Assembly: GCA_021734325.1 (NCBI GenBank)
Contig: JAIPJF010000005.1
Location: 4,028 to 68,027, forward strand
Direction: 5' to 3'
From: Fidelibacterota bacterium
Lineage (GTDB): Bacteria; Fidelibacterota; UBA8477; JABMPR01
DNA: 64,000 nt
The notes below the pieces were generated by a model. The model was not told where the DNA came from. It did not search any database and saw only the letters and a program-made list of their open reading frames with translations. The position numbers and the translations under genes are program-made. Every line of letters starts with the position of its first letter. Position 1 is the first letter of the stretch. Positions 17,293 to 32,997 of the stretch are shown here, one piece after another.

Positions 17293-17302
17293 TTAAAATT
17301 CC

Positions 17303-18203: not shown

Positions 18204-18872
18204 CTATTTGGTGATTTCAGCATCTTCAATGATGTTCGGATAAAAGTAGCCGGCTCCAAAATCCTTATCAAGGGTGAGCACTCCTTTTGCTGTCACACGC
18301 ATACCGACATCAACGGAATTATCACCTGTTGTGATGACGATTGTTGATGAATCAGATTCACCATCACTTAGATGGATCCATGTTTTTCCCATAATTCCGT
18401 GAAGAACCTTAATCGCTTCACCCTGGATCGAAATTGTGTGATTATTCAATACGTCCCTTGATCGCTTCACCTCAATGATCGGCTTGAATCCGGGTAGCGT
18501 CTTGTGAATTGTTTTGGGAGCGGTCATTGACATCATCTTATGGTCAGGTCTATTGAGCTGGGCATTTGCTGCAAATAATATTCGCGGGAAAGTTCTATTC
18601 ATTGTCTTGCTATGGAAGTCTACCATCCACATTTGACCTTCAAATTCAATTTTTGCACCTACAATTGCAGGCATCAGGCGAACTGCTATCCAGAATGTGC
18701 TGTCTGCCTCCTCAATTTGAAAATAGCTATAGCCACCAGACTCCAATATCTCCTTCACAATCCCGGAATGTTTTCCCTCCTGACCCATTAGAAATGAGCT
18801 AAGCCCTAGAAAAAGAATGAGTATAGTTAATACTCTTCGAGAACCGGGGTGCTTAATATCTTGATTGGCCAT
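18204..18872 (-). CDS. Secreted or anchored protein with two related small beta-rich repeats (OB-like); function unknown
   Basis: N-terminal anchor 'VLTILILFLGLSSFLMG'. Repeat 1 is 'GGYSYFQIEEADSTFWIAV', repeat 2 is 'GKTWIHLSDGESDSSTIVITT...DKDFGAGYFYPNIIEDAEI'. It starts 8 nt after the radical SAM gene ends. Confidence 0.55.
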   Translation of the reverse strand: MANQDIKHPGSRRVLTILILFLGLSSFLMGQEGKHSGIVKEILESGGYSYFQIEEADSTFWIAVRLMPAIVGAKIEFEGQMWMVDFHSKTMNRTFPRILFAANAQLNRPDHKMMSMTAPKTIHKTLPGFKPIIEVKRSRDVLNNHTISIQGEAIKVLHGIMGKTWIHLSDGESDSSTIVITTGDNSVDVGMRVTAKGVLTLDKDFGAGYFYPNIIEDAEITK

Positions 18873-18880
18873 ACTTAACC

Positions 18881-20407
18881 CTATTCAGATAGTATATTGA
18901 GTTGTGTCAGTGTATGGGGGTGTATGACCCCTGTTTTCGTCTTCGGGTGTTTGCCGGTCATGGCGTCGAACATGCGTGAAAATGCCGATTCCTGACCAGA
19001 GCTCCGAATAAGCTCCGTTAAGAATGAGTTTTTCATAATCAAACGCATGGAGGTCTTCAGGTACTCTTTCTTGAAAGCATCAGGTTCAGTAAAAAAGTCA
19101 TGAGCCTTATTCATGTAATATCTTCTGTAGCAATCCACAAGTTGACTGCGGACCTCCTTCAGGCTCATGGTTTCTGGCTTTATGATAGGTTCAACCAGAT
19201 TGTACCTACCATAATCATACACCTCGATGAACGGTTCCATTTCCCTATACATTTCAGCATAGGGCCAGGGAGTAATGGCCAGAAAATGGGCAAAATCCGG
19301 ACTGTACTCTTGCGCGAGACGGAGTGTTTCATCAATACTCTCTTTGGTTTCCCAGGGAAAGCCTATCACAAATGATGTTTCAGTTATCATGTGATGCGCA
19401 TGGATAAGTCTGATTGCTTTCCGAGACGCCTCGATGCTCAATTCTTTATTGATCAGATCCAGCGTTTCCTGGCTGGTGGCTTCAAGACCGATGTAAATAT
19501 GGATGACCCCGGCAGCCTTATATTTTTCTAGAATATCTTCATCCCTTACAATGTCCTCAGCCCTTGTTTCAAGCAAAATGTAGACATCTAATTCGCTGAC
19601 AATAATGAGATCAAGCAGCCGCTCCCACCGCTCTCTATCTTTTGTAGGATATTCGTCCACGAATAGAAAAATATTGACGCCGTATTCTGAATGCAAGTGC
19701 TGCATTTCTGCTAGAATATTTTGTGGATCGCGGCCTCTCCAGGTTTTCCCCCAAAATTTTTGCTGAGAACAAAAGGTGCAGCCATGGGTGCATCCTCGAG
19801 AGGTGCTAATGGCCGCTAACCTGGAATCAGGGATAACAAAATATCGGTAATCTTCCCAGTCGATGAGATCCCAGGCTGTGGGTAGACTATCCAAGTCCTG
19901 ACAGAAAGGTCGTACCGCTGTGTGCTTTACTTCACCCTCATCAACATAGGTGAGTCCTGCGACATCTTTGACATCGTTCCCTAGATCCAGGGCTTTAAGA
20001 AGCTCAGGAAGTGTCTCCTCGCCTTCACCGACGACGATATAATCAATGATATTTGAATGCTCTCCAAATAGGTCTTGATAACAAAACGTTGGATGTACGC
20101 CACCCATGATCGTTTTTACTCCCGGGTGAATCCGCTTCGCCAGAGCCAGGACATCGATGCTGGCGTTAATACTTGCAGTGATTGAGGTGATGGCAATATA
20201 GTCAAATGCTTCCCGCCTGAGTGTGGTTCCAATTTCTTCAAGACTGTGCTGCTTTGACATGGCATCATAAATTTTTGCTTCATATCCGGCTTTTCTGACC
20301 GCTCCAGCGAGATAAACGAATACGAGTGGCATCCAGGTTCCTGCCGATTCAACCACGCCAGCGTGATAGGGAGGGGTGATAAATAATATTTTTTTCTTAC
20401 TACTCAT
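18881..20407 (-). CDS. B12-binding-domain radical SAM enzyme
   Basis: N-terminal cobalamin-binding Rossmann-like domain ('KILFITPPYH...AITSITAS'). Radical SAM cluster motif 'SRGCTHGCTFCSQ' (CxxxCxxC). The long C-terminal helical tail is typical of class B radical SAM proteins. Confidence 0.9.
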   Translation of the reverse strand: MSSKKKILFITPPYHAGVVESAGTWMPLVFVYLAGAVRKAGYEAKIYDAMSKQHSLEEIGTTLRREAFDYIAITSITASINASIDVLALAKRIHPGVKTIMGGVHPTFCYQDLFGEHSNIIDYIVVGEGEETLPELLKALDLGNDVKDVAGLTYVDEGEVKHTAVRPFCQDLDSLPTAWDLIDWEDYRYFVIPDSRLAAISTSRGCTHGCTFCSQQKFWGKTWRGRDPQNILAEMQHLHSEYGVNIFLFVDEYPTKDRERWERLLDLIIVSELDVYILLETRAEDIVRDEDILEKYKAAGVIHIYIGLEATSQETLDLINKELSIEASRKAIRLIHAHHMITETSFVIGFPWETKESIDETLRLAQEYSPDFAHFLAITPWPYAEMYREMEPFIEVYDYGRYNLVEPIIKPETMSLKEVRSQLVDCYRRYYMNKAHDFFTEPDAFKKEYLKTSMRLIMKNSFLTELIRSSGQESAFSRMFDAMTGKHPKTKTGVIHPHTLTQLNILSE

Positions 20408-20777
20408 AGAGAGACATTGATCTTCTTAACCGTGTTTGGATGACTAACCCCCATATGACAAGACTGACAAGCAAAATATGTTTTACGATGAGTGCGACTA
20501 TTTGTCCCCGTCCAGCGGCCGGTAACCATTCATATTGTTCATAAGCCATTGTTCTGATCACACCACCGATGATAATCCATATCCAGGCTATCCAGATCGC
20601 TTTTCTGAAATAATTATAAATTCCGATGTATAGCGTCATCCCATCCCGGGAGAGATCCTTTTTACTGGATTTATAGAGATAGCTGAGACCAAACAGGCTC
20701 ACAAATAACAAGGCTACTGCAAAATCATGAAAAAAATTGTTCAGCATGATGAATATTGACATGAACACTCCCATCAT
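20400..20777 (-). CDS. Small integral membrane protein (3-4 TM helices, His residues in the helices)
   Basis: 125 aa and hydrophobic. 'FFHDFAVALLF' and 'IVKHILLVSLVIWG' place His residues within predicted helices. Its start overlaps the upstream stop (TGATG), and its stop overlaps the radical SAM start by 8 nt (ATGAGTAG). Confidence 0.7.
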   Translation of the reverse strand: MMGVFMSIFIMLNNFFHDFAVALLFVSLFGLSYLYKSSKKDLSRDGMTLYIGIYNYFRKAIWIAWIWIIIGGVIRTMAYEQYEWLPAAGRGQIVALIVKHILLVSLVIWGLVIQTRLRRSMSLYE

Positions 20778-21790
20778 CAGAATTTATAGAACTTTAGTTC
20801 GGTGCTGGCCATATCAGTAATCATAATTAAGCGCTTTTCATTGTCAATTGCGAGATTTATCGGGGATTCCAGTTCTTCACCGTAGGTTAATATCTGGGTC
20901 CCAGACGGGTCAAATACGTGGATCATGCCGGTTTCACTATCTGCGATATGCAGTCGGCCTTGCTGGTAAATTCCTGAGGGATCAAATACACTGTCTGCTC
21001 GCGCCAGGAATTTCGGTGATGGGATATTATCGAAAGCCATTCCCTGGGGCGATTGTAGCGCATTGCTTTCAGGTTTGACCAGCAGGCCCATGTCTCTGCC
21101 ATTACAGCTAAACACTCTTACATTCGCCGGGTGTAAAGTGCTAACGAGTAGCCTTCCATCAGGAGATATGATACAGTAGCCAGGGGCGAAGAAATCTAAA
21201 TCAGACCCGTTTAAATCCGGCGCGGAAAAAATGAGTTCTCCTGGTTCGCTGATTCCCGGTTTTTCCATGATATTTATGGCCATGACCTGCTGAAGTTTGC
21301 GGTCAGTGACATAGAGGACACCATCGTGCAGGGTAATGCCATATGGACGTAATCTGCTCACGTGGTCAGGCAGCCAGGCGATACGCTGAATCAAAGTTCC
21401 CAACAGGTCATAAATACGTAAATCACCTATCTGACTATCGGTCATATAAATATGATCATGATCCGCAGTGATTCCGGTAATGGAACCTTTCCCCTCATGG
21501 GATAGGTCCAGTCGCTTGATGAATTTGAATCGCGTATCAAAGATGTCAACGAGAGATTTATTGTGATAGGAAAGAAAACGATATTGATCTGTCGAACAAA
21601 ATGCGAAGGGGCGCAGGTTTTTATCATCAGATAATTTCAGGCTCCCAAGGTAAACAGGAGGCTCATCGAATTGCGTGATCACGTGAGTATTCTGTATCTT
21701 TCTTTCCAGTGTTAGCCAGTCATCGTGACTGAAAATAGATATACTGAAAGCCAGAATAGCCCCCACAAGAATGGGGGTGCAGATCTTCAT
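20777..21790 (-). CDS. NHL-repeat six-bladed beta-propeller protein (paralogue 3)
   Basis: Start chosen at 'MKICTPILVGAILAFSISIFS' (signal peptide). An alternative ATG at 21826 would overlap the ccsA stop by 8 nt. Repeated 'GITxD..hIYVTD....I.hasp' blades (e.g. 'PYGITLHDGVLYVTDRKLQQVMAI'). Confidence 0.8.
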   Translation of the reverse strand: MKICTPILVGAILAFSISIFSHDDWLTLERKIQNTHVITQFDEPPVYLGSLKLSDDKNLRPFAFCSTDQYRFLSYHNKSLVDIFDTRFKFIKRLDLSHEGKGSITGITADHDHIYMTDSQIGDLRIYDLLGTLIQRIAWLPDHVSRLRPYGITLHDGVLYVTDRKLQQVMAINIMEKPGISEPGELIFSAPDLNGSDLDFFAPGYCIISPDGRLLVSTLHPANVRVFSCNGRDMGLLVKPESNALQSPQGMAFDNIPSPKFLARADSVFDPSGIYQQGRLHIADSETGMIHVFDPSGTQILTYGEELESPINLAIDNEKRLIMITDMASTELKFYKF

Positions 21791-21818
21791 TACTTTGCTA
21801 TTGATCAGGGAGTTCAGA

Positions 21819-22637
21819 TTAACCATAACTGTGAATGGTCTGATAGACGTAACCAACACCCCACAGAGAGAAAGCAGCGATGAGTACGGCGATAATCGCA
21901 TACCAGGCAGTAAATTTACCCCGCAAGCGTTTAAAGGTGAAGTGTATATGGAGATACAGTGCATATACGATCCAGGTGATCAAGCTCCAGGTCTCAATGG
22001 GATCCCAGGCCCAGTAACGTCCCCAGGCATTATTGGCCCACACCGCCCCGGAAGCGAGCATAATAGTATGGAAAAGGAATCCCATCATGATATAGCGAAA
22101 GACCATTTCATCTAATAGTTCAGGCGTGCTTGGGTTTATTTTATCTCCGGCTGTTGATTGTCGATTCCTTTTTAACCACATGAAGCTTATACCTGCTGCG
22201 ACGAGAAACAGGGCCACACTCGCAGTAGCAAAACTTGCATGAATAAAGAGCCATACGCTATCCAATCCTGCACTCAAGGGTTCACCTGCATAGGAGGGGG
22301 TGCTGGCCCAGCCCATAAGCAAAAATGATCCACCACTTACCCCCAGTCCGGCCAAATCGAATCCCTTACCCTGTATTTGAAGTATGAGATAGAATAAAAT
22401 GGCGAACCATGCTGTAGCAGAAGCAGATTCAAACAGCGAAACAAAGGGAGGGTGCCCAGTGTAGATCCACCTGAGGATCTGGAAGAGAGTATGCATACTC
22501 AATCCAAAATAGACTGCAATGATGGCAAAGGATGAAAATTTGTCCTTTGCAAAAAAGAAGGCAATACAAAAGACTCCAAATGCCGTAGCATAACTTAACA
22601 CTGCCAACCAATACGAGATAATTTCAAATAATTGCAT
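21819..22637 (-). CDS. ccsA: Cytochrome c biogenesis System II haem-handling protein CcsA/ResC
   Basis: Polytopic membrane protein with the Trp-rich WWD motif 'WGRYWAWDPIETWSLITW' and flanking conserved His residues. Confidence 0.9.
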   Translation of the reverse strand: MQLFEIISYWLAVLSYATAFGVFCIAFFFAKDKFSSFAIIAVYFGLSMHTLFQILRWIYTGHPPFVSLFESASATAWFAILFYLILQIQGKGFDLAGLGVSGGSFLLMGWASTPSYAGEPLSAGLDSVWLFIHASFATASVALFLVAAGISFMWLKRNRQSTAGDKINPSTPELLDEMVFRYIMMGFLFHTIMLASGAVWANNAWGRYWAWDPIETWSLITWIVYALYLHIHFTFKRLRGKFTAWYAIIAVLIAAFSLWGVGYVYQTIHSYG

Positions 22638-23937
22638 GTTTTTGCTCTGATTCCTCTGTGTGAATTGGGTCCGTTTGAGGAGAAAGGGTAATTAATGGAT
22701 TGAGCAGTGGCTCCAATTCTGATAACAGGTCTTGGATTTCCTTATGCATGCTTGCCCTGTATTTTTCTGCTTTGCTTGAGATCTTGATGCTCGTGTAATG
22801 TTTCAATTCGTCAATGCTTATCATGATAGTGGTCCGACTGAACAAAGCTCGTAACAGAAGTCCGATAATCATAGATATTAAACCCATCTGGAGAGGAATT
22901 TGTCCAGGATTAGTCTGCAGTTCGAATTGATTCCAGGTTCGGATGTCGGAGTAAAATATTTGAAGACCCTGCAAAAATCCAGATGCACCAGGGAATAATG
23001 ATAGGGAGGCTGTCATGGTATTTGGACCTTTGGGCTCTTGGATCGAGATCTGGAGCTTGTTTTGATCTTCGATCTTCAGGTTTAAAACAACACCATTGGG
23101 CAGAGTAAAATGATCCGAATGGATACGCGTACCATTGGTCCAGCGGTTCGCAATTCTGATATATCCAGCAAGTTGTTGTCCTGTGTCATCAAGAATTCTG
23201 AGACCTGGTGAATACCCCCAGTTCATTAAAATGAACCCGTAGTCGTCTATATGTCCCCCTTCTCCATAAATGATTGTTTTTTCAGTATGGGTTTTAGGGG
23301 AAAATACAGTAGCACTACCGGGAGTGACCACTTGATCCTTGTACAATACGGGGGGGATGAAACTGCTCAGGGACACAGAGAATGACTCCCGAGTCCCTGG
23401 AGTGACAAACCAGCCTGGATCTGAATGCTGCCAGGATTGAGTTGGACTATCAAAAGTTTCACCCTCTGTCAAGGAGAAAACCATTTTATGACCCAAGGCC
23501 ATATTCATGAACAGAGCGATTAAAATTATTAATAAGGCGAAATGGAATATAAATGAGCCCCAAATACCAACATTCAGGTTTGAATAGGTCATGCCAGTAT
23601 GGAAGAGGTATCTGCGATTAAAGGATCTGACATTTGTCATATGCTCGGTTATGATCTCCTCGACCTGCTGACTTCGGAAGGGGGAATAGAGGGCAAATAT
23701 CTTGGGCGAATGCTTGAAGCCTGTCTTTGCAGCCTTCGATCGTTTCAACTCACTTCTTATACGACGGAAAAGAGAGAGCGAGAGCATGATGATGGTCAGG
23801 AGTCCTAATGTTACACCTATCTGTTCCAGTGAACCCACGTCTACGATTGATGGGAAAAGGGCAATATTCACAGACAAGATGAGCAAAGCGATTAGAAATA
23901 GAAATGCGAGTCTATTAATAGTCAAAAATCGAGACAT
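22624..23937 (-). CDS. ccsB: Cytochrome c biogenesis System II protein ResB/CcsB-like
   Basis: Start chosen at 'MSRFLTINRLAFLFLIALLIL'; the longer ORF would overlap the upstream cytochrome gene. The topology is ResB-like: N-terminal TMs including the His-bearing 'IFHFALLIILIAL', a large soluble domain and a C-terminal TM. It overlaps ccsA by 14 nt. Confidence 0.7.
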   Translation of the reverse strand: MSRFLTINRLAFLFLIALLILSVNIALFPSIVDVGSLEQIGVTLGLLTIIMLSLSLFRRIRSELKRSKAAKTGFKHSPKIFALYSPFRSQQVEEIITEHMTNVRSFNRRYLFHTGMTYSNLNVGIWGSFIFHFALLIILIALFMNMALGHKMVFSLTEGETFDSPTQSWQHSDPGWFVTPGTRESFSVSLSSFIPPVLYKDQVVTPGSATVFSPKTHTEKTIIYGEGGHIDDYGFILMNWGYSPGLRILDDTGQQLAGYIRIANRWTNGTRIHSDHFTLPNGVVLNLKIEDQNKLQISIQEPKGPNTMTASLSLFPGASGFLQGLQIFYSDIRTWNQFELQTNPGQIPLQMGLISMIIGLLLRALFSRTTIMISIDELKHYTSIKISSKAEKYRASMHKEIQDLLSELEPLLNPLITLSPQTDPIHTEESEQKHAII

Positions 23938-23957
23938 TTTTGCTAAAGTTTCATCTC

Positions 23958-25841
23958 TTAGTAATTTGTACCTTTGTGGGTCTTGGCACAATTTGCCGCA
24001 CCTGATTCTGACCAGCATTTGGGCACAGTGAAATCAATGTCTGCAATATAGCCGTTTACGAAGGCTCTCAGAGGTTGGGCAGTACCGGCACTGGATAATT
24101 GCTCATTTGTCACATATGCTTTATTCTGTCCATGGACATAGATCACCTTACTGTTTCCCCCTGACGTTGCCCCTATTTCAGAGCTTTCATACATATGGCA
24201 TGAGAAACATCCCATTGTCAATCGATGGGCACTTTTTACCGAGGGATGTTGACCAAATTGAGAGGACACCAAGCCACCATTCCAATAATTTGCATAGGAG
24301 TGGCACACATTGCAGAGGGGCGTGCCATTGGTTGCATCGCTGGCGATTGTCGCCACCAACATGGCAGATTGATTGGATGCGGGATCTGGGCTGTCCACGA
24401 TAACCGAAGAACCATGTGGTCCGGTGGCGTCAGTTCGATCAGGTATTCCTGTACCTGTGGACGTCCATCCTAAATCACTTCCATGACAATCTGAACATAG
24501 CACCAGACGGGTTGCGGAATCAAATGGGGGATTGGCATTGCTGGAATTCACCCACACGGTTTCATTTCTCTGTACAATTCCATGTGTGGAAGCATGGTTA
24601 GGATTGATCTCAAGGGCGATATTTCTTTTGCCTGCACCCTGCGTCGTATAATCAGAATGACATTTCAGACAGATCTGCCATTCAGCTGTCACCGGGTCCA
24701 CCACTGTATAGGTGATTGTAGGGCTGCCAAAATCGTTTGAGTTATCGGAAAAACTAGTTGGAGGCGTCCACCAGGTTGGCTGAACTCCCCATGTTCCTTT
24801 TAGAGCCGTTGCTAACGATGAGCCTGTCGTACCACCTGCAAGATGTGGCTCATGACAATCAAAACACTCTGCGTGTCGCTTGTCTGGATCTCTGAAAAAT
24901 GTATCTGCAGGAGCGGTCATAAATGTTTCACCACTAACATGAATTCCGGAAATTGTATTTGTTGGATGAGCATTGAGACTATTTAGTGGAGTCTCTATAT
25001 CCAAACTTCTGCCGCTGCTGGTCCCTGTTGCTGCTGTTGGTGCGTGACACCCCGAGACAGAGCAGGTAGCTTCTTCAACACCGGATAAAAGTGAGTTCCC
25101 ACCTCCATGGGGTTTATGACAGCCGGCACAACCTGTGGTATAATGAGCGACATCCACATCCCAGCCTGATTTAGCGTGACAGGTATTACATAGGTCTGCA
25201 CTGGGTTGGTGCAGGAAAGGTGCATATGTGGTATTGTGAGGATCATGGCAGGTATGACATTCAACGGTACCAGAAATATCATTGGGGTCAAGAAGGACAC
25301 CGCCAGTCAATGATGGATCCCAAGGGAAAGTCCTTGCGACAAGGTCTGGATCCTGACCCGGTCCACTTCCCTGATCATAAGTGAATCCGATTGGATGATC
25401 ATCTGTGAGATCGGTGCCTATGTATCCTGCGGCAACAAGTGGCATGGTTGTGACGCCGCCGGCCATGGTAATGGCGGATCCCGTGCCACTCCCCGGTGCA
25501 TTGTATACAGAACCGATAGCCACGGTTCCATCGTGACAGCTCATACAGAGTTTGGATTTGTCATTCGGTTGTGATGGTGTTGCATAACCTGAGAGCCTGG
25601 TGCTTGAGTATAAAGTATAGTCTGTTACAGAGCTCATCTGTTGGTTCCAGAGCTGATCAATGGTCTGGGTACTATGAGCAGTATGACAGAAAATGCAAAC
25701 CCCTTGTTCTGTGTCGGCCTGGTATGTGGCTCCCGTTGAAGAAGCTGAGAGGTCGTGCTTTGAATTTATAATTGATTGACCGGAGAGGACTGCATTCATT
25801 ACAAGGGCAGAAATAAACAAATAAAGAAGCTGTCTAATCAT
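23958..25841 (-). CDS. Multiheme cytochrome c, 11 haem-binding motifs (10 CxxCH + 1 CxxxxCH)
   Basis: Signal peptide 'MIRQLLYLFISALVMNAVLSGQ' (ATG 25841 overlaps the upstream stop by 8 nt, ATGATTAG). Motifs: CIFCH, CMSCH, CHTCH, CNTCH, CAGCH, CSVSGCH, CFDCH, CLKCH, CSDCH, CNVCH, CFSCH. The N-terminal 'SKHDLS...CIFCHTAH' resembles the doubled-CXXCH family. Confidence 0.95.
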   Translation of the reverse strand: MIRQLLYLFISALVMNAVLSGQSIINSKHDLSASSTGATYQADTEQGVCIFCHTAHSTQTIDQLWNQQMSSVTDYTLYSSTRLSGYATPSQPNDKSKLCMSCHDGTVAIGSVYNAPGSGTGSAITMAGGVTTMPLVAAGYIGTDLTDDHPIGFTYDQGSGPGQDPDLVARTFPWDPSLTGGVLLDPNDISGTVECHTCHDPHNTTYAPFLHQPSADLCNTCHAKSGWDVDVAHYTTGCAGCHKPHGGGNSLLSGVEEATCSVSGCHAPTAATGTSSGRSLDIETPLNSLNAHPTNTISGIHVSGETFMTAPADTFFRDPDKRHAECFDCHEPHLAGGTTGSSLATALKGTWGVQPTWWTPPTSFSDNSNDFGSPTITYTVVDPVTAEWQICLKCHSDYTTQGAGKRNIALEINPNHASTHGIVQRNETVWVNSSNANPPFDSATRLVLCSDCHGSDLGWTSTGTGIPDRTDATGPHGSSVIVDSPDPASNQSAMLVATIASDATNGTPLCNVCHSYANYWNGGLVSSQFGQHPSVKSAHRLTMGCFSCHMYESSEIGATSGGNSKVIYVHGQNKAYVTNEQLSSAGTAQPLRAFVNGYIADIDFTVPKCWSESGAANCAKTHKGTNY

Positions 25842-26844
25842 TGCTGCTGCTCCTGAGATATTGAAAAATCTGGATGCGCCCATTCATGGTATCAGCAATG
25901 TAAATCTTATCGTTATTATCGATCCATATTCCAGAGGGCATATTGAATTGTCCATGCCCATTTCCTGGGCTTCCGACAACCAGAAGTAATTGGCCCTCGG
26001 CATTGAAAATCTGGAATACATTAAACAGGTTGTCCACGACATAAATGTGATCCTGACTGTCACTGGCAATTCCTTTTGAACGCATAAACGTTCCCTGCAC
26101 ATCTCCCTGTTCTCCAAATATGTTTGTGATTTTATGGCTCTCATTCACTGCTTGTACCCGGAAGTTCATGGAATCGTTTATATACAGGTGTTTCCCTGTT
26201 CCCATAAATACAGGAAAATTGAATTCACCTGGACCAATGCCCTGCTGACCAAACTCAAACAAATATGTACCATCAAGGTTAAAGATGAAGATCTTGTGAT
26301 AACCCGTGTCTGCGACATATAATCGATTTTGATAGATGCAAAGTCCAGTCGGTCGAGAAAAATATCCCTCTATAGCATATTCCAATCGTCCTTTTTCATT
26401 GAGGATAAAAACAGACCCTATCTCCGAATCACTTATAAATATTTTTCTGCTCTGGGAAACCACAACATCTACAGGACTGATAAAAGGAGTTGAGCCGGCG
26501 TGATCAATGCGCTGGTAGCTTTTATCCTTTTGGTCGAACACATGCAGTGTCCTTAGTCCCTGATCTGTTACATACAGCCTGCCCATTCCATCGACGCACA
26601 AGCTTAGGGGTTTGACCAGTGACTCACTTCGGGAATCTCTTCCTAAAACGAAATCGACCACCTTGCTCCAGAATTTTTTTTCAATTCCCAAATCCTGACT
26701 GGAATAAATACTCGAGACGTAGCGTATGCGTGCCATTTCAGGTGGTTCGGGCCAGACGGGTTTCTCCTCTGCCCAGGCGAAGTCCAATGCTCCCAGTAGG
26801 AGAATAGTAATGCAGAGGCCCTTTATTGGCAGAAAAACTTTCAT
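25834..26844 (-). CDS. NHL-repeat six-bladed beta-propeller protein (paralogue 2), secreted
   Basis: Signal peptide 'MKVFLPIKGLCITILLLGALDFAWA'. NHL blades include 'GEFNFPVFMGTGKHLYINDSMNFRVQAV' and 'GQFNMPSGIWIDNNDKIYIADTMNGRIQIF'. Confidence 0.85.
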   Translation of the reverse strand: MKVFLPIKGLCITILLLGALDFAWAEEKPVWPEPPEMARIRYVSSIYSSQDLGIEKKFWSKVVDFVLGRDSRSESLVKPLSLCVDGMGRLYVTDQGLRTLHVFDQKDKSYQRIDHAGSTPFISPVDVVVSQSRKIFISDSEIGSVFILNEKGRLEYAIEGYFSRPTGLCIYQNRLYVADTGYHKIFIFNLDGTYLFEFGQQGIGPGEFNFPVFMGTGKHLYINDSMNFRVQAVNESHKITNIFGEQGDVQGTFMRSKGIASDSQDHIYVVDNLFNVFQIFNAEGQLLLVVGSPGNGHGQFNMPSGIWIDNNDKIYIADTMNGRIQIFQYLRSSSND

Positions 26845-26923: not shown

Positions 26924-28597
26924 CTATAACGTTATCGTTATTGGACGGCTTATCGTAATAAAATATCGATTCCCGGAATTGAATTTACTTTCTCGATATT
27001 CATATCGAAAGCTGATTCGATATGCGTATACACGTGCGTTTAAATTTGCATTCAGGGTCGTTGAAATGAAATGCACCAAATTACTTGTATCAGTTGGGTC
27101 CGATCCAATGGTTATTGTTTGATGACTGTATAATCCTGAGATCTGAGTGGAAAAATTTCGAAAAAGACCTGAATTGGCAAAGCTGATTCTGGCTGATCTC
27201 GCTTTATCAAGTGGCTTATCAAGGTTTGTCCACGAGAGGTTTGCCTCCAAGCTTCCGGTTGTGGCTCGACCCAGTTTTATATTTGATCGGCCTTTTAATA
27301 TTCTTGAATGGACAATGTCGGAGCTACTGACCAGGCCAGTGCGTGCCTGCCCTTGAATGACACTCAAATCCAGAAATATATTTGAGCTGACATTGCTTTG
27401 AAATCCAAAGTGAACGCTATTTCTAAATGCTGAGTTAGACAAATAGCTCAACAGATGTGTGAAGCTTTCTTCTCCATTCAGCTCAATTTTTTGGTTTAGC
27501 TTCCATCTCATTCTACCACTGATGCTCAAGGTGTTTGCATAGTGATATTTCTCCTGGTGTCTTAATCTCTGTACGCCAGTCTTATCGCTGATGGTCAAAG
27601 AAGTTCGTGCGCTCCTGATCCGCTTGTTGTATAGAAAATTGGCTCTGACCCAGTAGGCATTTTCGGACATGCGTTCAACAGGTGATATGGAATTGGTCTC
27701 AGAAAGATCTGCTCCCAGGGATAGACGTTTACCATTTGGAAGTGTAAACGAACTTGAATGAATTGCGCTGATCGATTGAGTGCTGAATAGGGCAGTACTC
27801 TGCTTTTGCATACCAAGCACTGTTGTATGACGCGTACCTGGAGGAGTATCAGGGATAATATTTATTTTTCCGTTCGAAGATTGGGCCTGATTAAGTTTGT
27901 TCAGATTTGCCTGTGTCGTTATCCTGATTTTGTCAATCAATCTGGTGAAGGAATTAAAAGAAACAGTTTCGTAGGTATTATCAAGATTCACCAGGTAATT
28001 ATGATCCCTTGCCTTGGAATAATACATCGAATAGCCAGCTGTTACATCACGACTCTGATTATTGATGGCAATTGAAAATTGATTCCCACTTTGAAGCAGC
28101 GCGTTTTGATTTGCAATTTGTGAAAGACTAGTACTATAAACGATCTTTGGCAAAAGTTTGGTCCCGGGTATACTTCCCTGAAGTCTCAGAAAATCATTGT
28201 TCTCAAATATTTTCCCCAATAATTGGGATGATCCATTGCTCTCTTCTCTTCTATTCCTTATAAGGCTCAGGCTGATCGGAAAGCGCGATTTTTTTAGCAG
28301 GTTGCTTCTTAAGTTATAATTCCATTGTCTTGGTATAAAAGTCGTGCTCCCAGCGGCTTCACGTATCAGGGTCCGTTGGTCATTATAAGCTGTGGTTAGA
28401 ACATAATCACCGATGCGCTCATGGAGAAGTCTGCCCATGATCCTTAGCTGATAGTTTTGGCGATAATTTGAAATTTGATTGGCATCTTTATCAAACGAAT
28501 TTGTCATATTGAGCGTTATCGTCGATATCTGAGCAATGCCGCTTGACAGCAGGATCAAAATAAAAAAACAGACTTTATAACTGCTCTTGAGAGTCAT
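26924..28597 (-). CDS. Predicted outer-membrane beta-barrel protein (candidate porin of the cytochrome cluster)
   Basis: Signal peptide 'VCFFILILLSSGIAQ'. 557 aa, Ser/Thr/Asn/Arg-rich with many short alternating hydrophobic/polar stretches, no Cys-haem motifs and no TM helices. I recognised no family by eye. Confidence 0.55.
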   Translation of the reverse strand: MTLKSSYKVCFFILILLSSGIAQISTITLNMTNSFDKDANQISNYRQNYQLRIMGRLLHERIGDYVLTTAYNDQRTLIREAAGSTTFIPRQWNYNLRSNLLKKSRFPISLSLIRNRREESNGSSQLLGKIFENNDFLRLQGSIPGTKLLPKIVYSTSLSQIANQNALLQSGNQFSIAINNQSRDVTAGYSMYYSKARDHNYLVNLDNTYETVSFNSFTRLIDKIRITTQANLNKLNQAQSSNGKINIIPDTPPGTRHTTVLGMQKQSTALFSTQSISAIHSSSFTLPNGKRLSLGADLSETNSISPVERMSENAYWVRANFLYNKRIRSARTSLTISDKTGVQRLRHQEKYHYANTLSISGRMRWKLNQKIELNGEESFTHLLSYLSNSAFRNSVHFGFQSNVSSNIFLDLSVIQGQARTGLVSSSDIVHSRILKGRSNIKLGRATTGSLEANLSWTNLDKPLDKARSARISFANSGLFRNFSTQISGLYSHQTITIGSDPTDTSNLVHFISTTLNANLNARVYAYRISFRYEYRESKFNSGNRYFITISRPITITL

Positions 28598-28664
28598 AAA
28601 CGACGCTTATAAAGAATTGAGATTATTCCCATTTCACAATACCCCACTTGCCCTGGAAATAGAA

Positions 28665-28701
28665 AAAGGACCAAAAAAGTTTTGAGCTCCCTTGGTCCTT
28701 T
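28665..28701 (-). terminator. Rho-independent terminator directly after the tetrahaem cytochrome gene
   Basis: On the minus strand: aaaggaccaa-(17-nt loop)-ttggtccttt followed by ttctattt. It lies 40 nt after the stop at 28741. Confidence 0.8.
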
Positions 28702-28740
28702 TACCCGGTTTAAACGATGATTAAGCCGTGGGAGAAATCC

Positions 28741-29388
28741 TTATTTCGAATGACAGGTGATACATAGTGCGCTGGAAGCATTGCTCTTCCGTAAAAATGT
28801 ACCGTTCGTGTTGTCATGCGGATCATGACAGCTATTACACTCAACCTTGCCATTTGTCAGCTTCAAACCGCCTGTGCTTGTGACCGTAGCTGCTGCGACG
28901 AATCCAGAAGCATCTGCAGCAATACTTTCAGAGTATAATATCCCAACTGGATGATCACCACTTAAATCCCTTGTCATGTCTGGCATACCGGCAGCAATGA
29001 TTCCACTAGTCACATTTCCACCATCAGTTATAGCAATGGTTGCACCACTGGCACCAGATCCCGATTCATTCAGTATGACGCCGATAGCTGTGGCACCATC
29101 ATGGCAGCTCATGCAGGCAGTAGATCCTTCGCCAGAGGAACCGGCTGTGCTAGCCAGGGCCACAGTGTTGTAAGTGGCTATGGTTCCTGATCCCTTGTTC
29201 CAGAGCAGGTCAGCGCCATTGGTTGTGTGTGGCGTATGGCAAAAGATACAGGTACCCGTCTCAGTTGTAGCGACAGCACCACCGCTGGTCGAACTGGTGG
29301 ACAGGTCATGCTTTGTGTTCGCGATTTGAGCATTTGTCACGCCGATAGCGATCAACAGCACTAAGCTTGAAAGTAACAGTTTTTTCAT
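28741..29388 (-). CDS. Small secreted tetrahaem cytochrome c (215 aa), Ser/Thr/Gly/Ala-rich
   Basis: Signal peptide 'MKKLLLSSLVLLIAIGVTNAQ'. Motifs: CIFCH, CMSCH, CNSCH, CITCH. It is collinear with the first four haem motifs of the 11-haem protein (KHDLS, CIFCHT.H, LWN, CMSCHDG..AIG, DHP.G, VEC..CHDPH, LC.TCH.K). Confidence 0.95.
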   Translation of the reverse strand: MKKLLLSSLVLLIAIGVTNAQIANTKHDLSTSSTSGGAVATTETGTCIFCHTPHTTNGADLLWNKGSGTIATYNTVALASTAGSSGEGSTACMSCHDGATAIGVILNESGSGASGATIAITDGGNVTSGIIAAGMPDMTRDLSGDHPVGILYSESIAADASGFVAAATVTSTGGLKLTNGKVECNSCHDPHDNTNGTFLRKSNASSALCITCHSK

Positions 29389-29506: not shown

Positions 29507-29522
29507 GGCAATATCCGTGCCA
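29507..29522 (-). promoter_or_regulatory. Near-consensus sigma-54 (-24/-12) promoter for the tetrahaem cytochrome gene
   Basis: The minus strand reads TGGCACGGATATTGCC against the consensus TGGCACG-N4-TTGCW, with exact GG-N10-GC spacing. The -12 GC lies about 120 nt upstream of the ATG at 29388, inside a 230-nt intergenic region. Confidence 0.75.
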
Positions 29523-29619: not shown

Positions 29620-30633
29620 CTATCCCGCTCCAAGAAAGCGGAATACCTGGACACGTGAATTGTGCTGATCAACCACATAAATCAAATTATTTTCGTCAAT
29701 ATGTATCCCCATGGGAGTATGAAATTCACCCGCAGCAGTTCCGGGAATACCGACAAATAAATAGACATTGCCAGCTTCATCAAATATTTGGAAATTGTGG
29801 TACATCCCGTCTGTCACAAAGATATACTCATCATTTGTGACTGCCAAGCCCTTGGGTCTGTAGAGATCACCAGGGGCATCACCTGCCTGCCCGAACTTGG
29901 AAATGAAATTTCCGTCGAGATCAAAAATCTGAACTCGGAAATTCATGGCATCCACGACATAAATTTTATCATTCTTGATGGACATATAGGAAGGAAAATT
30001 AAACTCACCCTCTCCACTTCCTCTTGCGCCAATGGTAAACAACTGATCTCCGCTGTGAGCATTAAAAACAATGATTTGATGTGAATTGCTATCGGTAACG
30101 TAGAGTCTGTCTGTCCCGGCATGATAGGCTAAGCCTCCGGGTCGGTTCAATTCGCCCTTTTTGCCTATCAGTTTTATAAATTTGCCGTTTGTGGTCATAC
30201 AGACAATTTTTTGCAAATAGCTGTCGGCTACCCAGATAAGACTATCATGGATGGCCAGACCTACAGGCCATAATAATTTAGTCTTTCCCTGCTGACCAAT
30301 TTTTCGAATTTTGCCTTGCTCTCTGTCGAACACTTTTATTGAGCGATCGGCACTATCGCTGACATAGACATTTCCCCTGGCATCTGTCGCGACATCAAAG
30401 GCTTGAATGAGCTTTTGACCGGCTTCCGCACCAAATACAATGGTGCTAAGTTTGTCTTGATAGCTTTGTCCCTGGAAATATTGATCCTGTAAAATTTCAA
30501 CAAATTCAATTCGTGCCTGATCTGGAGGATCCGGCCAGACGAGCTCTGGCCACACTGAAACTGTTGGTGTACACCCAGTGAGGGAAAAGAGCGTTGAAAT
30601 AAAAGACACATATAATTTGATTATTTTTTTCAC
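29620..30633 (-). CDS. NHL-repeat six-bladed beta-propeller lipoprotein (paralogue 1)
   Basis: Lipobox 'LFSLTGC'. NHL blades include 'GEFNFPSYMSIKNDKIYVVDAMNFRVQIF' and 'GEFHTPMGIHIDENNLIYVVDQHNSRVQVF'. It is clearly paralogous to 25834-26844. Confidence 0.85.
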   Translation of the reverse strand: MKKIIKLYVSFISTLFSLTGCTPTVSVWPELVWPDPPDQARIEFVEILQDQYFQGQSYQDKLSTIVFGAEAGQKLIQAFDVATDARGNVYVSDSADRSIKVFDREQGKIRKIGQQGKTKLLWPVGLAIHDSLIWVADSYLQKIVCMTTNGKFIKLIGKKGELNRPGGLAYHAGTDRLYVTDSNSHQIIVFNAHSGDQLFTIGARGSGEGEFNFPSYMSIKNDKIYVVDAMNFRVQIFDLDGNFISKFGQAGDAPGDLYRPKGLAVTNDEYIFVTDGMYHNFQIFDEAGNVYLFVGIPGTAAGEFHTPMGIHIDENNLIYVVDQHNSRVQVFRFLGAG

Positions 30634-30649
30634 TGGAAGCGTCCTTTAT

Positions 30650-31699
30650 TCAATTATTGGGATCCTGCTTAAGCACCTCAAGGGAGGGGGGAACAGGGAG
30701 TTTCAATCTTTCTGGAATGATAAATTCAGGCTGCTCAATATCGGTTGTTTTCCCATTCTCATTCGCTTTGAGTGCACTTAGCGATGGAGCCAGCGGTAGA
30801 TCGTAATCTTTGGGACCTACATAGAATTCAGGTCTACTGATTGAACTATCATAAGGGGGACTGAACAGACCAAACCCACTGAATAAATCTTTCAGATCCT
30901 GCCACAAGTTTGTGTGCTTGGCAAGCGGAAAACCAATCAGGGGTCTCGTCGAAAAACCTGCCATAGCCTGTATGACCGGTTGTGATTGATCACCAGACAT
31001 GCAAAAGCCGTATGCCATGCCCACCTGTAAATGACTGAAAACGAAGGTCTTGATCCCGGCATTGATAAATGATTCATATCCTTCAGGTGCAGACCCATCC
31101 AGAAAATACTCCCCGCTGACCTGAAGATTCTTGAACAGGGGTCGACTTCCAGCCAATCCGAAATACAGCCCTCTTTTTACTCTCCTCTCCTCAAAGGTCC
31201 TTTCCTGCAAACCGACTTGTAATATTGCATTCACATTACCCAGAGTATACTCTGAGATCAAGGTAGCCTGGTAAAAACGATAATTCGAGACGGATGAAGG
31301 GAGAGGATTGGAAATATATTCCACCTGTGAGGACTTTGCTGAGAGGGCGAGATTAGCGTCATGCCAGGTAAGCAGGTTGATCTTTGTGCCAATTTGTGAA
31401 TCACCAAGTAAAGCATTATTAAAGGTACTTTGCTGATTATGGGAAAGGAAAATCTCAATTTTGGGAGAAATCCCCAGGGCAAAATTAAAGGGAATAAACT
31501 GACTTGAATGAGCAGGCAGCAGTCCGATGCGGATATGGCCAACATCCAGGGTCTGGGCACTCGGGATATAAAACAATCCCGTTGAACCATTCAAGCTTAT
31601 CCCGAGATCTGGTATATATGGTGATTGATCTGCAGCATGGAGGCCGCAGACAACTTGTAGAAACAGGGCGAACAGGACAAGTTTGGGTGTATGTTTCAT
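30650..31699 (-). CDS. Secreted, outer-membrane-like protein with a Pro-rich C-terminal tail
   Basis: Start chosen at 'MKHTPKLVLFALFLQVVCGLHA' (signal peptide, 4 nt after the upstream stop). 'STGLFYIPSAQTL' resembles the N-terminal motif of YjbH-like beta-barrel proteins. The C-terminal roughly 80 aa are Pro-rich. Confidence 0.5.
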   Translation of the reverse strand: MKHTPKLVLFALFLQVVCGLHAADQSPYIPDLGISLNGSTGLFYIPSAQTLDVGHIRIGLLPAHSSQFIPFNFALGISPKIEIFLSHNQQSTFNNALLGDSQIGTKINLLTWHDANLALSAKSSQVEYISNPLPSSVSNYRFYQATLISEYTLGNVNAILQVGLQERTFEERRVKRGLYFGLAGSRPLFKNLQVSGEYFLDGSAPEGYESFINAGIKTFVFSHLQVGMAYGFCMSGDQSQPVIQAMAGFSTRPLIGFPLAKHTNLWQDLKDLFSGFGLFSPPYDSSISRPEFYVGPKDYDLPLAPSLSALKANENGKTTDIEQPEFIIPERLKLPVPPSLEVLKQDPNN

Positions 31700-31703
31700 A
31701 GGC

Positions 31704-32909
31704 CTAATTTTTAAAATGACATTGTTGACAAAGCTCACTCCAATTCCCCCTCAGCAGAAATTCCTCATCTGAAGCGTGGGGGTGGTGACAGGAGGCACAG
31801 CTCAATTCGTGATCAGGATCCAGGGGATTTGGGTACCCTGAATGAGGATGTTTTTTGACCGGGTGGAATCCAGCTTTGATATGATCATGGCAGCTTAGGC
31901 ATAATTCATTTGTCTTTTTAACAAGGAGGGCGTCAGCCGATGTTCCGTGGGGGTCATGACAAATGAGACAGCTTTCCTCCATGGGCGGATGGATATTTTC
32001 CATATTGTTAACTTCGTCTTCCTGATCGCTATGACACATCATGCAAGTACTCGGGTCTCCGCGGAAATCTTCTAGAAGTTGATGTTTGGGATCGGATCCA
32101 TCATCATGACAGGAATTGCATTCCATTTCTTCAGTGGGAGAATGCATCATTGCTTTGTCCAGGATTGATGAGTGGCAGAACGAGCAGTCGTCTTCCTCCA
32201 TCTCCGTATGACAATAGGAGCACTTTTCCTCATTTTCGCCATGGAACTCACTACGGACGGCATTCTCAGGGACATCTTCAGCCAGAGAGGAAATGAAATA
32301 ATAGAAATTCAGGGTGTCGGCATATTGCAATTCATATTCTTCGTTCAGGAAATGCAGATAGAATGAATTAGAACCAGGTTTAAACGCAAGTTGTGAGGCG
32401 ATGAGGTCTGGATGATTGGGGCGACTTAATGGATTCAGTATCCTTTTCTCAACATTCCAGCCAATTAAAGTGATTTTCAGATTAAGAGCGTTAATTTCGG
32501 TGACTTTTTGAAGGGCCCGTCGGAAATCGGTCGTTCGCCAGAAATCTTCCAGATCGAGGGGGCGACTGGTTGAAAAATTGTATTCATAGGTCGAGGTGTC
32601 ATTATTTATATGAATAAAATTCAGGATCATGATATTGACATTGAACCGAGGGGTGAACATGTTCATCATGGTTTTGGGAAAGGCATCTTTTTCCTCGGGA
32701 CTGAGGATGCCCATTGATGTACTGATAGTTGTATCCTGGAGGAGTTGGTATTCGGTGCGGGTAGAGGAAGTGTAGAGTGCTTTTAAAAACCCTCCCTGTG
32801 CATAACTGATTTTTTCGTGGGTTAGCGGAAAGAGTAATTGGAGATCATCACCGTAATTAGGGCTGGATATTAGAACCAAAAACAGCAGAAAAAGGACATG
32901 TATTTTCAT
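31704..32909 (-). CDS. Octahaem cytochrome c with a roughly 220-aa N-terminal non-haem domain
   Basis: Signal peptide 'MKIHVLFLLFLVLISS'. Motifs: CSYCH, CSFCH, CNSCH, CMMCH, CLICH, CLSCH, CASCH, CQQCH, all in the C-terminal 180 aa. 'CHDPHGT...LL....LCLSCH' is a doubled-CXXCH-like spacing. Confidence 0.95.
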   Translation of the reverse strand: MKIHVLFLLFLVLISSPNYGDDLQLLFPLTHEKISYAQGGFLKALYTSSTRTEYQLLQDTTISTSMGILSPEEKDAFPKTMMNMFTPRFNVNIMILNFIHINNDTSTYEYNFSTSRPLDLEDFWRTTDFRRALQKVTEINALNLKITLIGWNVEKRILNPLSRPNHPDLIASQLAFKPGSNSFYLHFLNEEYELQYADTLNFYYFISSLAEDVPENAVRSEFHGENEEKCSYCHTEMEEDDCSFCHSSILDKAMMHSPTEEMECNSCHDDGSDPKHQLLEDFRGDPSTCMMCHSDQEDEVNNMENIHPPMEESCLICHDPHGTSADALLVKKTNELCLSCHDHIKAGFHPVKKHPHSGYPNPLDPDHELSCASCHHPHASDEEFLLRGNWSELCQQCHFKN

Positions 32910-32981
32910 TACGCAATCATTTCTGTTTGCAGCGAGTAGGCCGCAATATATAAAAGTTAGTGAACATTGAGAGAATAGATG

Positions 32982-32997
32982 TGCATATATGATACCA
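32982..32997 (-). promoter_or_regulatory. Possible weak sigma-54-type promoter upstream of the octahaem gene
   Basis: The minus strand reads TGGTATCATATATGCA. The GG-N10-GC spacing is correct, but only about 9 of the 12 specified consensus positions match. It lies 73-88 nt upstream of the ATG at 32909. Confidence 0.3.

Follow-up and report, generated by a model that had tools for sequence, protein, structure and literature searches.

A probable omcE-type extracellular electron-transfer cluster, Marinimicrobia variant, in a Fidelibacterota genome

Does a tight run of genes for multihaem cytochromes, beta-propellers and putative outer-membrane proteins in a Fidelibacterota genome encode a new extracellular electron-transfer machine, or a variant of a known one? 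The locus lies at positions 18204-32909 of a 64-kb stretch of contig JAIPJF010000005.1 (assembly GCA_021734325.1), which was analyzed over its full length and is called the window below. A first-pass annotation of the window had proposed an undescribed machine and raised the point that nanowire loci of Geobacter contain NHL, porin-like and ResB/ResC genes. That point was correct and is the key to the locus: one of the genes encodes a 215-amino-acid (aa) homologue of the nanowire cytochrome OmcE. This homologue and the content of the cluster support the extracellular electron-transfer reading. The label "undescribed" had to be dropped: the core composition has been published for omcE (10.1101/2025.10.22.684050), and an analogous osc cluster is described, so far as citations of it go, for omcS. 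Published omcE clusters share the core, which is therefore a known kind of system. We consider it highly probable that the whole core is homologous to omcE clusters, and probable that the locus is an omcE-type extracellular electron-transfer cluster, in a Marinimicrobia variant, working by the mechanism set out below and with conduit and filament mutually compatible. On the narrower point of whether the 215-aa protein would actually form filaments, we hold the two outcomes to be evenly balanced.

The OmcE homologue and its expression signals

The subunit gene and the signals on either side of it are:
28741..29388, minus strand: OmcE-like tetrahaem cytochrome, 215 aa, proposed polymerising nanowire subunit (PDB match, four CxxCH)
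29508..29522, minus strand: sigma-54 (-24/-12) promoter TGGCACGGATATTGC (consensus scan)
28664..28702, minus strand: intrinsic-terminator-like hairpin, 16-bp stem and T-run (terminator scan)

The 215-aa protein matched two structures solved by cryo-electron microscopy, the OmcE filament of G. sulfurreducens (7tfs_A; E = 6.5e-29, query 6-215 on chain 9-232) and the OmcE bundle of Desulfuromonas soudanensis (9yuq; E = 1.3e-25, query 1-215 on chain 1-218). Judged by sequence, it is a full-length OmcE homologue. It has exactly eight histidines (H27, H51, H54, H96, H146, H188, H191 and H213), all invariant among 24 homologues. Four of them sit in the CxxCH motifs and the remainder are H27, H54, H146 and H191, in agreement with the alignment to OmcE. 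The eight fit the four bis-His haems of the OmcE family, in which one haem draws a ligand from the adjoining subunit, such ligation between subunits not being readable from sequence. The N-terminal arm, I-x-N-T-K-H-D-L-S, has the same spacing as in OmcE. Identity to the proven filament formers was ∼35%, estimated by eye over HMMER alignments, and the hexahaem OmcS matched the tetrahaem at E = 0.014 only. The NCBI annotation of the subunit is merely "cytochrome c3 family protein".

The promoter TGGCACGGATATTGC is located ∼120 nucleotides (nt) upstream of the OmcE-like start codon, within the gap that precedes the gene, and is the sole zero-mismatch match to TGGCAC-N5-TTGC in the 64-kb window. 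Related loci from metagenomic contigs and genomes, designated by L-numbers, were compared with the window. Sigma-54 sites with at most one mismatch were found upstream of 14 of 79 OmcE-like genes in these loci (∼1.6 expected); perfect sites are among them, in the Geobacteraceae locus L047 and in L009, L011, L026 and L068. The hairpin, directly 3' of the OmcE-like gene, has an RNA fold of -20.9 kcal/mol (z -2.4). It probably attenuates read-through, which would leave the subunit in excess over the downstream products. A promoter of its own together with an attenuating hairpin would suit a main structural component that the cell must make in large surplus.

Composition, synteny and spread of the cluster

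The cluster consists of 13 co-oriented minus-strand open reading frames (ORFs) at 18204-32909. The first-pass annotation had counted fourteen genes, although its own list names 13; up to position 32997 nothing further is coding, the sole extra ORF there being 44 aa long. The gap pattern was borne out, with 231 nt before the OmcE-like gene, 143 nt after it, and all remaining junctions at 79 nt or less or overlapping. The larger ORF overlaps vanish once internal Met starts are chosen. The GC (guanine plus cytosine) fraction is 0.42-0.48 across the cluster, the same as in the rest of the window. The other 12 genes, in the order of transcription, are:
31704..32909, minus strand: octahaem c-type cytochrome, 401 aa (Pfam Paired_CXXCH_1, 5.6e-24)
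30650..31699, minus strand: small outer-membrane barrel candidate, 349 aa from Met14, the longest ORF starting at 31738 (AlphaFold2, Foldseek)
29620..30633, minus strand: NHL1, six-bladed beta-propeller lipoprotein, 337 aa, lipobox LTGC (Pfam NHL, 1.1e-26; DUF5128, 3e-25)
26924..28597, minus strand: 557-aa haem-free secreted protein, proposed large outer-membrane barrel serving as export channel or anchor (signal peptide, family profile)
25834..26844, minus strand: NHL2 beta-propeller, 336 aa, signal peptide, no clear lipobox (Pfam NHL, 7.7e-25)
23958..25883, minus strand: 11-haem cytochrome, 641 aa (10 CxxCH and one CX4CH)
22624..24018, minus strand: divergent ResB (CcsB-type), which handles haem in System II cytochrome c maturation, likely start Met28 (Pfam ResB, 5.5e-10, 39 bits)
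21819..22637, minus strand: CcsA/CcsB-type haem lyase subunit, 272 aa (Pfam Cytochrom_C_asm, 3.8e-36, 125 bits)
20777..21964, minus strand: third, divergent beta-propeller, ∼337 aa from Met59 at position 21790 (phmmer)
20400..20777, minus strand: CopD-like integral membrane protein, 125 aa (weak Pfam CopD)
18881..20407, minus strand: BchE-like B12-binding radical S-adenosylmethionine (SAM) enzyme, 508 aa (Pfam B12-binding, 1.8e-25; Radical_SAM, 2e-25)
18204..18872, minus strand: 222-aa secreted two-module protein with faint OB-fold-like matches (no family at curated threshold)

Pfam and NCBIfam agreed with the initial gene assignments, namely paired-CXXCH cytochromes, two NHL propellers, a weak ResB, CcsA/CcsB and a B12-binding radical SAM enzyme. 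The total of 23 haem motifs was also right; 22 are canonical CxxCH (eight in the 401-aa protein, four in the 215-aa protein and ten in the 641-aa protein) and one, in the 641-aa protein, is CX4CH. Three propellers had been claimed. Two carry Pfam NHL matches; the third gave no Pfam hit, yet is a divergent member of the same family, as one phmmer round from it collected 80 ORFs and the converged set was that of the NHL propellers of related loci. The statement that every non-enzymatic product bears a signal peptide or lipobox does not hold for the 125-aa integral membrane protein, which has no signal peptide, and a clear lipobox (LTGC) was seen in NHL1 only.

The minimal omcE cluster has been described as comprising OmcE itself, two multihaem cytochromes, a pair of beta-propeller lipoproteins and a large beta-barrel, with resB/ccsB alongside (10.1101/2025.10.22.684050). 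The window shares with the Desulfuromonadia omcE cluster a tetrahaem with an identical haem-ligand pattern, propellers on both sides of it (NHL1 immediately upstream, NHL2 downstream past the barrel gene), a putative large haem-free outer-membrane protein (the 557-aa secreted product encoded directly downstream, with weak OmpG, porin and OMP_b-brl signals), additional multihaem cytochromes (8-haem and 11-haem), an adjacent resB/ccsB pair (contiguous ResB and CcsA) and a sigma-54-type promoter before the subunit gene. Propellers and a private haem-attachment system had been taken as anomalies at first pass; both are normal for omcE-type loci. Compared with the described clusters, the 349-aa small barrel, the third propeller, the CopD-like protein, the BchE-like radical SAM enzyme and the 222-aa protein are additions, and the glycosylation block of the Desulfuromonadia omcE cluster is absent from the window's cluster.

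For the other nanowire subunit, the omcS companion (osc) cluster has been proposed to help with folding, secretion and morphology (Shen et al. 2025, Cell Chem Biol). To the extent that osc is portrayed in citations, rather than gene by gene, it resembles the present locus in placing a nanowire subunit gene amid dedicated factors, among them a protein with NHL repeats and a secretion route of porin-like kind, and differs in its subunit, the hexahaem OmcS belonging to another family. The NHL-repeat protein GSU2505, encoded beside omcS, was proposed earlier as an assembly factor.

Gene order is retained in relatives whose subunits are 87, 58, 42 and 39% identical to that of the window, and the cluster is therefore not a chance juxtaposition. 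The shared order begins with the octahaem, the small barrel, an NHL propeller, OmcE, the large haem-free protein, a second NHL propeller and a cytochrome of ∼630-655 aa. It continues with ResB, CcsA, the third propeller and 125-aa protein (in some lineages only) and the B12 radical SAM enzyme. L045, a fragment of another Fidelibacterota metagenome-assembled genome (MAG), has the downstream half in the window's order, and the Chlorobiaceae locus L081 has the gene order of the window. In the three more distant of the four relatives, the first NHL gene is separated from the small barrel by genes for a sensor kinase, a sigma-54 activator and a receiver protein. The Geobacteraceae MAG L047 has the published Geobacter-type order.

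We surveyed OmcE-like genes using one genome per species; 600 pattern matches were examined, and at least 571 were confirmed. The best 80 of these (at least 571) genes, referred to as the 80 genome loci, span more than 15 phyla. Among those represented are Ignavibacteriota, Bacteroidota, Calditrichota, Chlorobiota, Acidobacteriota, Planctomycetota, Verrucomicrobiota, Nitrospirota, Campylobacterota, Proteobacteria, Desulfobacterota, KSB1, Elusimicrobia and Myxococcota. A propeller homologous to NHL1 adjoins the OmcE-like gene in 76 of the 80 genome loci, and NHL2 is paired with a large OmcE-domain cytochrome immediately downstream in most related loci. A four-part core, defined as an OmcE-like tetrahaem, a large OmcE-domain cytochrome (8 haems or more), two or more NHL propellers and a protein of the barrel family, was present in 36 of the 51 loci of at least 15 kb. 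Nanowire-capable homologues had previously been chosen by a nearby barrel and propeller lipoprotein, and were reported from five phyla, not including Fidelibacterota (10.1101/2025.10.22.684050); the four-part core over more than 15 phyla extends beyond these five. Cytochrome nanowires have been well studied in few Desulfuromonadia only, and the present locus would place an omcE-type system in Fidelibacterota. Literature searches on Marinimicrobia together with multihaem cytochromes or extracellular electron transfer returned nothing relevant that links the phylum to either.

Some OmcE-like genes were found in virus-like surroundings. L005 (ENA ERZ23498442 scaffold_158, 84 kb) encodes at 10001-12197 an OmcE-like tetrahaem, 50% identical to that of the window, and a 494-aa member of the barrel family. 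The setting is phage-like, with a T4-type RNA ligase, three HNH endonucleases, DprA-like and NUDIX proteins and dozens of small same-strand ORFs. Lone OmcE-like tetrahaem genes also occur on eight IMG/VR viral contigs (L089-L096) of up to 536 kb. The copies in L005 and IMG/VR may be phage-borne nanowire-subunit genes.

Large cytochromes, barrels, and conduit versus filament

The octahaem cytochrome is composed of a signal peptide, a non-haem N-domain of ∼220 aa and eight CxxCH motifs at residues 230-394. Over its full length it is conserved at 68% in L001, 45% in L003, 41% in L007, 32% in L008 and 25% in Chlorobiaceae L081. It matched the DmsE and GSU2203 decahaem families of NCBIfam partially, at 59 bits, below their cut-offs; with a 192-bit cut-off for TIGR03508, it was not recovered as a member of the DmsE/MtrA decahaem family. 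The best PDB match of its haem domain was 6r2q_A (E = 6.6e-12), which we take to be the 333-aa MtrA chain of an MtrCAB complex. Chain A carries the label "Cystathionine beta-synthase" in the PDB copy, which looks like a deposit or annotation error. We propose that the octahaem protein may serve as a periplasmic, barrel-inserted electron carrier like MtrA or DmsE.

The 11-haem cytochrome contains a complete OmcE module as its N-terminal domain (residues 16-238). Residues 22-238 matched 7tfs_A at E = 2.4e-33, and alignment to the window's own subunit, over the full length of the latter, gave 38% identity (E = 2e-41). Its C-terminal half bears seven further haem sites and a weak second OmcE-like stretch at residues 399-563 (E = 2e-4). 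Large OmcE-domain cytochromes (at least 450 aa and at least 8 haems) are encoded in 65 of the 80 genome loci. The operons examined earlier are stated to encode nothing OmcE-like that might serve as tip or stopper of the filament (10.1101/2025.10.22.684050). Because the operon in the window, unlike those, does hold such an OmcE module, we propose that the 11-haem protein could be a specialised end subunit of the filament (base, anchor, nucleus or tip); it could instead be an extracellular conduit cytochrome.

Two proteins were examined as outer-membrane barrels. For the 349-aa protein, one of the two outer-membrane candidates of the first-pass annotation, AlphaFold2 and Foldseek predicted a barrel. 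The AlphaFold2 model, built from an 11-sequence alignment, had a predicted local distance difference test score (pLDDT) of 68.8 and a predicted TM-score of 0.60, and contained 12 long antiparallel strands at residues 56-250, with block pLDDT mostly 74-90 and 53-69 in four blocks. The chain ends in a disordered proline-rich tail with two conserved LPxPPxLE motifs. Among the Foldseek matches to the model listed for the PDB, nearly all were outer-membrane barrels (OmpT, OmpC, autotransporter beta-domains, FapF and OmpG), with E-values down to 1.3e-5 and TM-scores of 0.3-0.5. We regard the protein as a candidate small outer-membrane barrel. Its family is tiny: when 1.84 billion proteins were searched exhaustively with HMMER, 12 representatives came up; homologues stand in the matching position in L001, L003, L007 and L008, and a weak one (E = 2.8e-4) in Chlorobiaceae L081. 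The protein matched no Pfam or NCBIfam family, and a PDB sequence search with the family profile gave nothing usable. A faint YjbH match in one member (E = 0.083) was not used as evidence.

Proteins of ∼330 aa that are encoded beside the barrel in other phyla were considered as relatives of the 349-aa protein, and the kinship was rejected (hhalign probability 0.2%). These neighbours are SurA-like PpiC rotamases. Such a rotamase (310-426 aa) adjoins the OmcE gene, the propeller or the barrel in 12 OmcE-like loci of other phyla (L011, L014, L016, L025, L026, L061, L077, L078, L080, L082, L084 and L088); the cluster in the window has none.

The evidence on the 557-aa protein comes from its composition and its family. 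The protein carries a signal peptide and just one Cys, N+S+T account for 30% of its residues, and its amphipathic-alternation score reached z 3.0 against ∼0 for control proteins. Word-indexed homologue searches with this protein, alone or concatenated with the small barrel, found its own entry and one relative of 57% identity. An iterated profile hidden Markov model (HMM) search converged on 70 haem-free ORFs (205-943 aa) plus the seed, all in OmcE-like loci and from many phyla, and three more ORFs were added with filters off. The family profile matched the C-terminus of OmpG (2wvp) at E = 8e-4. Weak matches to Pfam OMP_b-brl were seen in 4 of 55 members and to Porin_4 in 2 of 55 (2.2e-5), and the consensus C-terminus is R-x-F. 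These signs are indirect, and on them the protein is a candidate large outer-membrane barrel.

The two cytochromes and the large barrel allow another reading, a porin-cytochrome conduit without a filament, in which the octahaem on the periplasmic side, the 557-aa barrel and the 11-haem protein on the outside would make up an Mtr/Pcc/DFE-like complex across the outer membrane, with the tetrahaem as a monomeric or oligomeric periplasmic shuttle or surface cytochrome. Beyond the match of the octahaem to 6r2q_A, this would agree with the commonest architecture in other phyla (tetrahaem, NHL, 5- or 9-haem cytochrome, 650-720-aa barrel, NHL, 11-haem cytochrome), which resembles a set of periplasmic cytochrome, porin and outer cytochrome. 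It would also agree with DFE_448-451 and DFE_461-465 of Desulfovibrio ferrophilus IS5, which were interpreted as an outer-membrane cytochrome complex with electron uptake proposed (Deng et al. 2018, PMC5815863). By description, those loci share with the window multihaem cytochromes and two co-expressed NHL propellers, with homologues widespread in sediment bacteria, but no OmcE-type subunit or barrel was identified in that work (PMC5815863). MtrCAB of Shewanella and Pcc/Ext of Geobacter likewise combine multihaem cytochromes in the periplasm and on the outside with a barrel in the outer membrane. However, none of the 55 members of the window's barrel family matched Pfam MtrB_PioB at E up to 0.1, and Mtr and Pcc are not known to have propellers or a polymerising subunit; as far as these profiles tell, the resemblance to MtrCAB is functional and not one of membership. 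The subunit moreover retains the N-terminal arm and all haem ligands of the OmcE that forms filaments, and its gene is flanked by expression signals such as a structural subunit made in many copies would have. We hold a conduit without a filament to be unlikely; a conduit and a wire are in any case compatible, as the conduit may be the base of the wire.

A looser analogy links the omcE-type reading to chaperone-usher pili and to FapF. These systems offer parallels to a major subunit with an attenuating hairpin, a barrel, periplasmic helpers and a subunit-like end protein, and FapF and autotransporter barrels are among the structural neighbours of the small barrel. There is no sequence homology to ushers or chaperones, and the cargo here is a folded haem protein.

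From the observed homology part by part, the conserved synteny and the promoter and hairpin sequences, we infer how an omcE-type cluster of this composition might operate. The System II pair (ResB and CcsA) would attach haem at the cluster's 23 sites in the periplasm. The octahaem would ferry electrons from inner-membrane quinol oxidation, possibly by the cytochrome b/9-haem/4-haem module described below, to the outer membrane, where the 557-aa haem-free protein would form a channel or anchor. The 215-aa OmcE homologue, overproduced by means of its own sigma-54 promoter and the attenuator, would be exported and would polymerise into an insulated haem wire, and the 11-haem cytochrome, as end subunit, would couple the polymer to the conduit or the substrate. 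The NHL propellers may act as periplasmic or outer-membrane assembly factors. On this reading the locus offers candidates for the secretion, start and anchoring of nanowires, namely a subunit-like end protein and a second, small barrel with proline-rich docking-like motifs.

Several observations weigh against this reading. Filaments have been proven in three Desulfuromonadia species only, and none has been seen in Fidelibacterota. The gene order of the window is unlike the Geobacter type, in which nothing corresponds to the 11-haem OmcE-fusion cytochrome. The distribution of OmcE-like tetrahaems is very wide (at least 571), some being lone genes on viral contigs, and homology alone is therefore no proof of polymerisation. 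AlphaFold2 gave a pLDDT of 26.8 for the 557-aa protein with a 3-sequence alignment, a model that is unusable because only one non-identical homologue entered the alignment. Between the 557-aa family and the Geobacter-type barrel (L047, 752 aa), hhalign reported a probability of 51% over just 44 columns. Finally, sequence does not fix the direction of electron flow, and uptake is also compatible with the locus.

The unproven state of the large barrel (pLDDT 26.8) also favors a further alternative, in which the products would make up a redox-enzyme system confined to the periplasm, with sulfur or metal chemistry, for instance, taking place on the propellers; the "barrels" would then be secreted proteins with no relation to it. 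Propellers of the NHL type are capable of catalysis, and the NCBI name of the subunit goes no further than the cytochrome c3 family. This alternative is very improbable in our view, given that the subunit is specifically homologous to the extracellular OmcE, that the 349-aa protein is modelled as an outer-membrane barrel and that the 557-aa family is weakly OmpG/porin-like and tied to OmcE-like loci across phyla.

Haem attachment, downstream genes and surroundings

Downstream of the 11-haem gene, ResB/CcsB- and CcsA/ResC-type genes are adjacent, as in System II. ResB is conserved in L001, L003, L008 and L045. CcsA scored 171 bits against the TIGR03144 equivalog, slightly below the cut-off of 187.6 bits. 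Orthologues of the third propeller come after CcsA in L001, L003 and L045. All four orthologues of the 125-aa membrane protein match Pfam CopD weakly (best 3.9e-5), His17 and His100 are invariant, and the protein is 50-73% identical among lineages whose subunit is just 58% identical. No other products of the locus are as well conserved as this protein and the radical SAM enzyme.

The radical SAM enzyme matched TIGR02026 (BchE) over its full length at 421 bits, the next family reaching 141 bits. BchE is the anaerobic Mg-protoporphyrin IX monomethyl ester cyclase. Assignment as BchE proper was rejected, the score being below the equivalog cut-off of 481 and no photosynthesis genes being present in the window; by profile comparison the enzyme is a close full-length BchE paralogue. 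Its gene adjoins the CcsA or membrane-protein gene in L001 and L003 (76% identical), in L008 (49%) and in L045. More cytochrome genes come after it in L003 and L008, and the enzyme is therefore embedded in the operon there. The position of a porphyrin-enzyme relative beside a private haem lyase hints at a possible haem or cytochrome modification. A literature search on BchE and multihaem cytochromes returned nothing relevant.

The last gene product, of 222 aa, has homologues in the OmcE-like loci of six other, unrelated genomes (Sulfurimonas, Chlorobiota, Wenzhouxiangellaceae, Lentimicrobiaceae, Nitrospiraceae and Elusimicrobia), some of which weakly match DUF1980_C, tRNA_anti-like and GW. A PDB sequence search with this protein gave nothing usable.

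ResB, CcsA, the third propeller, the CopD-like protein and the radical SAM enzyme might instead form a separate operon for cytochrome maturation or haem modification that merely lies beside the electron-transfer genes. Among the 80 genome loci, CcsA occurs in 10 and the radical SAM enzyme in 3; in Desulfuromonadia, resB/ccsB form a conserved flanking block and not the omcE cluster proper (10.1101/2025.10.22.684050); and conservation is higher in the radical SAM enzyme and membrane protein than in the electron-transfer proteins. Yet these genes are contiguous and co-oriented with the cytochrome genes in four lineages, with overlaps or tiny gaps, and the radical SAM gene lies among cytochrome genes in L003 and L008. 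A terminator scan of the junction preceding ResB found no terminator-like site, and from ResB to the 222-aa gene it found three weak intragenic hairpins, with no stem above 5-6 bp. We rate a separate operon as rather doubtful, and keep these genes with the omcE-type cluster.

A more speculative proposal, which we think has a small chance of being right, joins both ends of the locus. ResB-CcsA, the third propeller, the CopD-like protein and the radical SAM enzyme would form a maturation line that attaches haem and in addition modifies porphyrin or cytochrome, for example by radical-SAM methylation or cyclisation, much as BchE acts on Mg-protoporphyrin; and the 11-haem protein would be a covalent "pre-formed dimer" that nucleates and anchors the OmcE polymer in the barrel. 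If so, the modification would be needed for nanowire assembly or redox tuning, and the 11-haem protein would be the initiator or tip subunit that was sought, and not found, in Geobacter-type operons (10.1101/2025.10.22.684050). Two further candidates for study are the sigma-54 promoter with a haem-motif kinase (see below) as a control circuit, and the radical SAM enzyme, which resembles a porphyrin enzyme and goes with a haem lyase private to the cluster.

The surroundings of the cluster contain the following features:
37629..40559, plus strand: candidate inner-membrane entry module with cytochrome b (350 aa), 9-haem and 4-haem cytochromes c (Pfam Cytochrome_B, 2.9e-52)
48694-53710, plus strand: four-gene [NiFe] uptake-type hydrogenase (small subunit, 4Fe-4S protein, NrfD-like membrane subunit, large subunit)
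58357..61360, minus strand: sensor histidine kinase and sigma-54-dependent response regulator (Pfam Sigma54_activat, 1.1e-68; HisKA; HATPase_c)
21-1289 and 9303-11669, plus strand: secreted proteins with a type IX secretion C-terminal sorting domain (Pfam Por_Secre_tail)
33188-34660, plus strand: MASE10-domain adenylate/guanylate cyclase, divergent from the cluster
34872-36947, plus strand: tetratricopeptide repeat (TPR) protein after the cyclase gene
16504-18154, minus strand: 283-aa protein without family and a sulfotransferase, 3' of the cluster, with gaps of 49 and 10 nt

The cytochrome b module lies 4.7 kb from the cluster on the opposite strand, and the multihaem cytochrome c beside cytochrome b has c7/c3 and paired CXXCH domains. 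The module is plausibly a Cbc-like quinol:cytochrome oxidoreductase that may be linked to the cluster. The [NiFe] hydrogenase may feed electrons into the conduit, and genes for a pyruvate dehydrogenase complex also lie in the window. The context of hydrogenase, pyruvate dehydrogenase and cytochrome b fits electrons that are drawn from H2 or organic donors and pass outward, to an acceptor outside the cell.

The kinase/regulator pair is 26 kb from the cluster. Compared with the in-cluster pairs of L003 (2342-5199) and L008 (5256-8151), the regulator is 37-41% and the kinase 26-27% identical. All three kinases carry one CxxCH between two N-terminal membrane segments, in the periplasm, which suggests a haem-based redox sensor. 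The pair in the window may control the sigma-54 promoter of the OmcE-like gene. Similar pairs (∼500 aa with one CxxCH; ∼455 aa) were seen in the OmcE loci L011, L024, L061, L064 and L085.

The host is a Fidelibacterota/Marinimicrobia MAG: its 557-aa and 215-aa proteins agree at 100% with NCBI entries from a "Candidatus Marinimicrobia bacterium" MAG, "Candidatus Marinimicrobia" being Fidelibacterota, of the FCB (Fibrobacterota-Chlorobiota-Bacteroidota) group, in current NCBI taxonomy. The two proteins with type IX sorting domains agree with this and confirm the FCB-type envelope that had been assumed at first pass. The cyclase and TPR genes are kept beside the cluster in the closest relative, L001, and are absent there in more distant ones. 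The genes for the 283-aa protein and the sulfotransferase are probably outside the cluster, because they were not seen after it in L003 or L008. In Geobacter-type loci, glycan-modifying genes do come after omcE.

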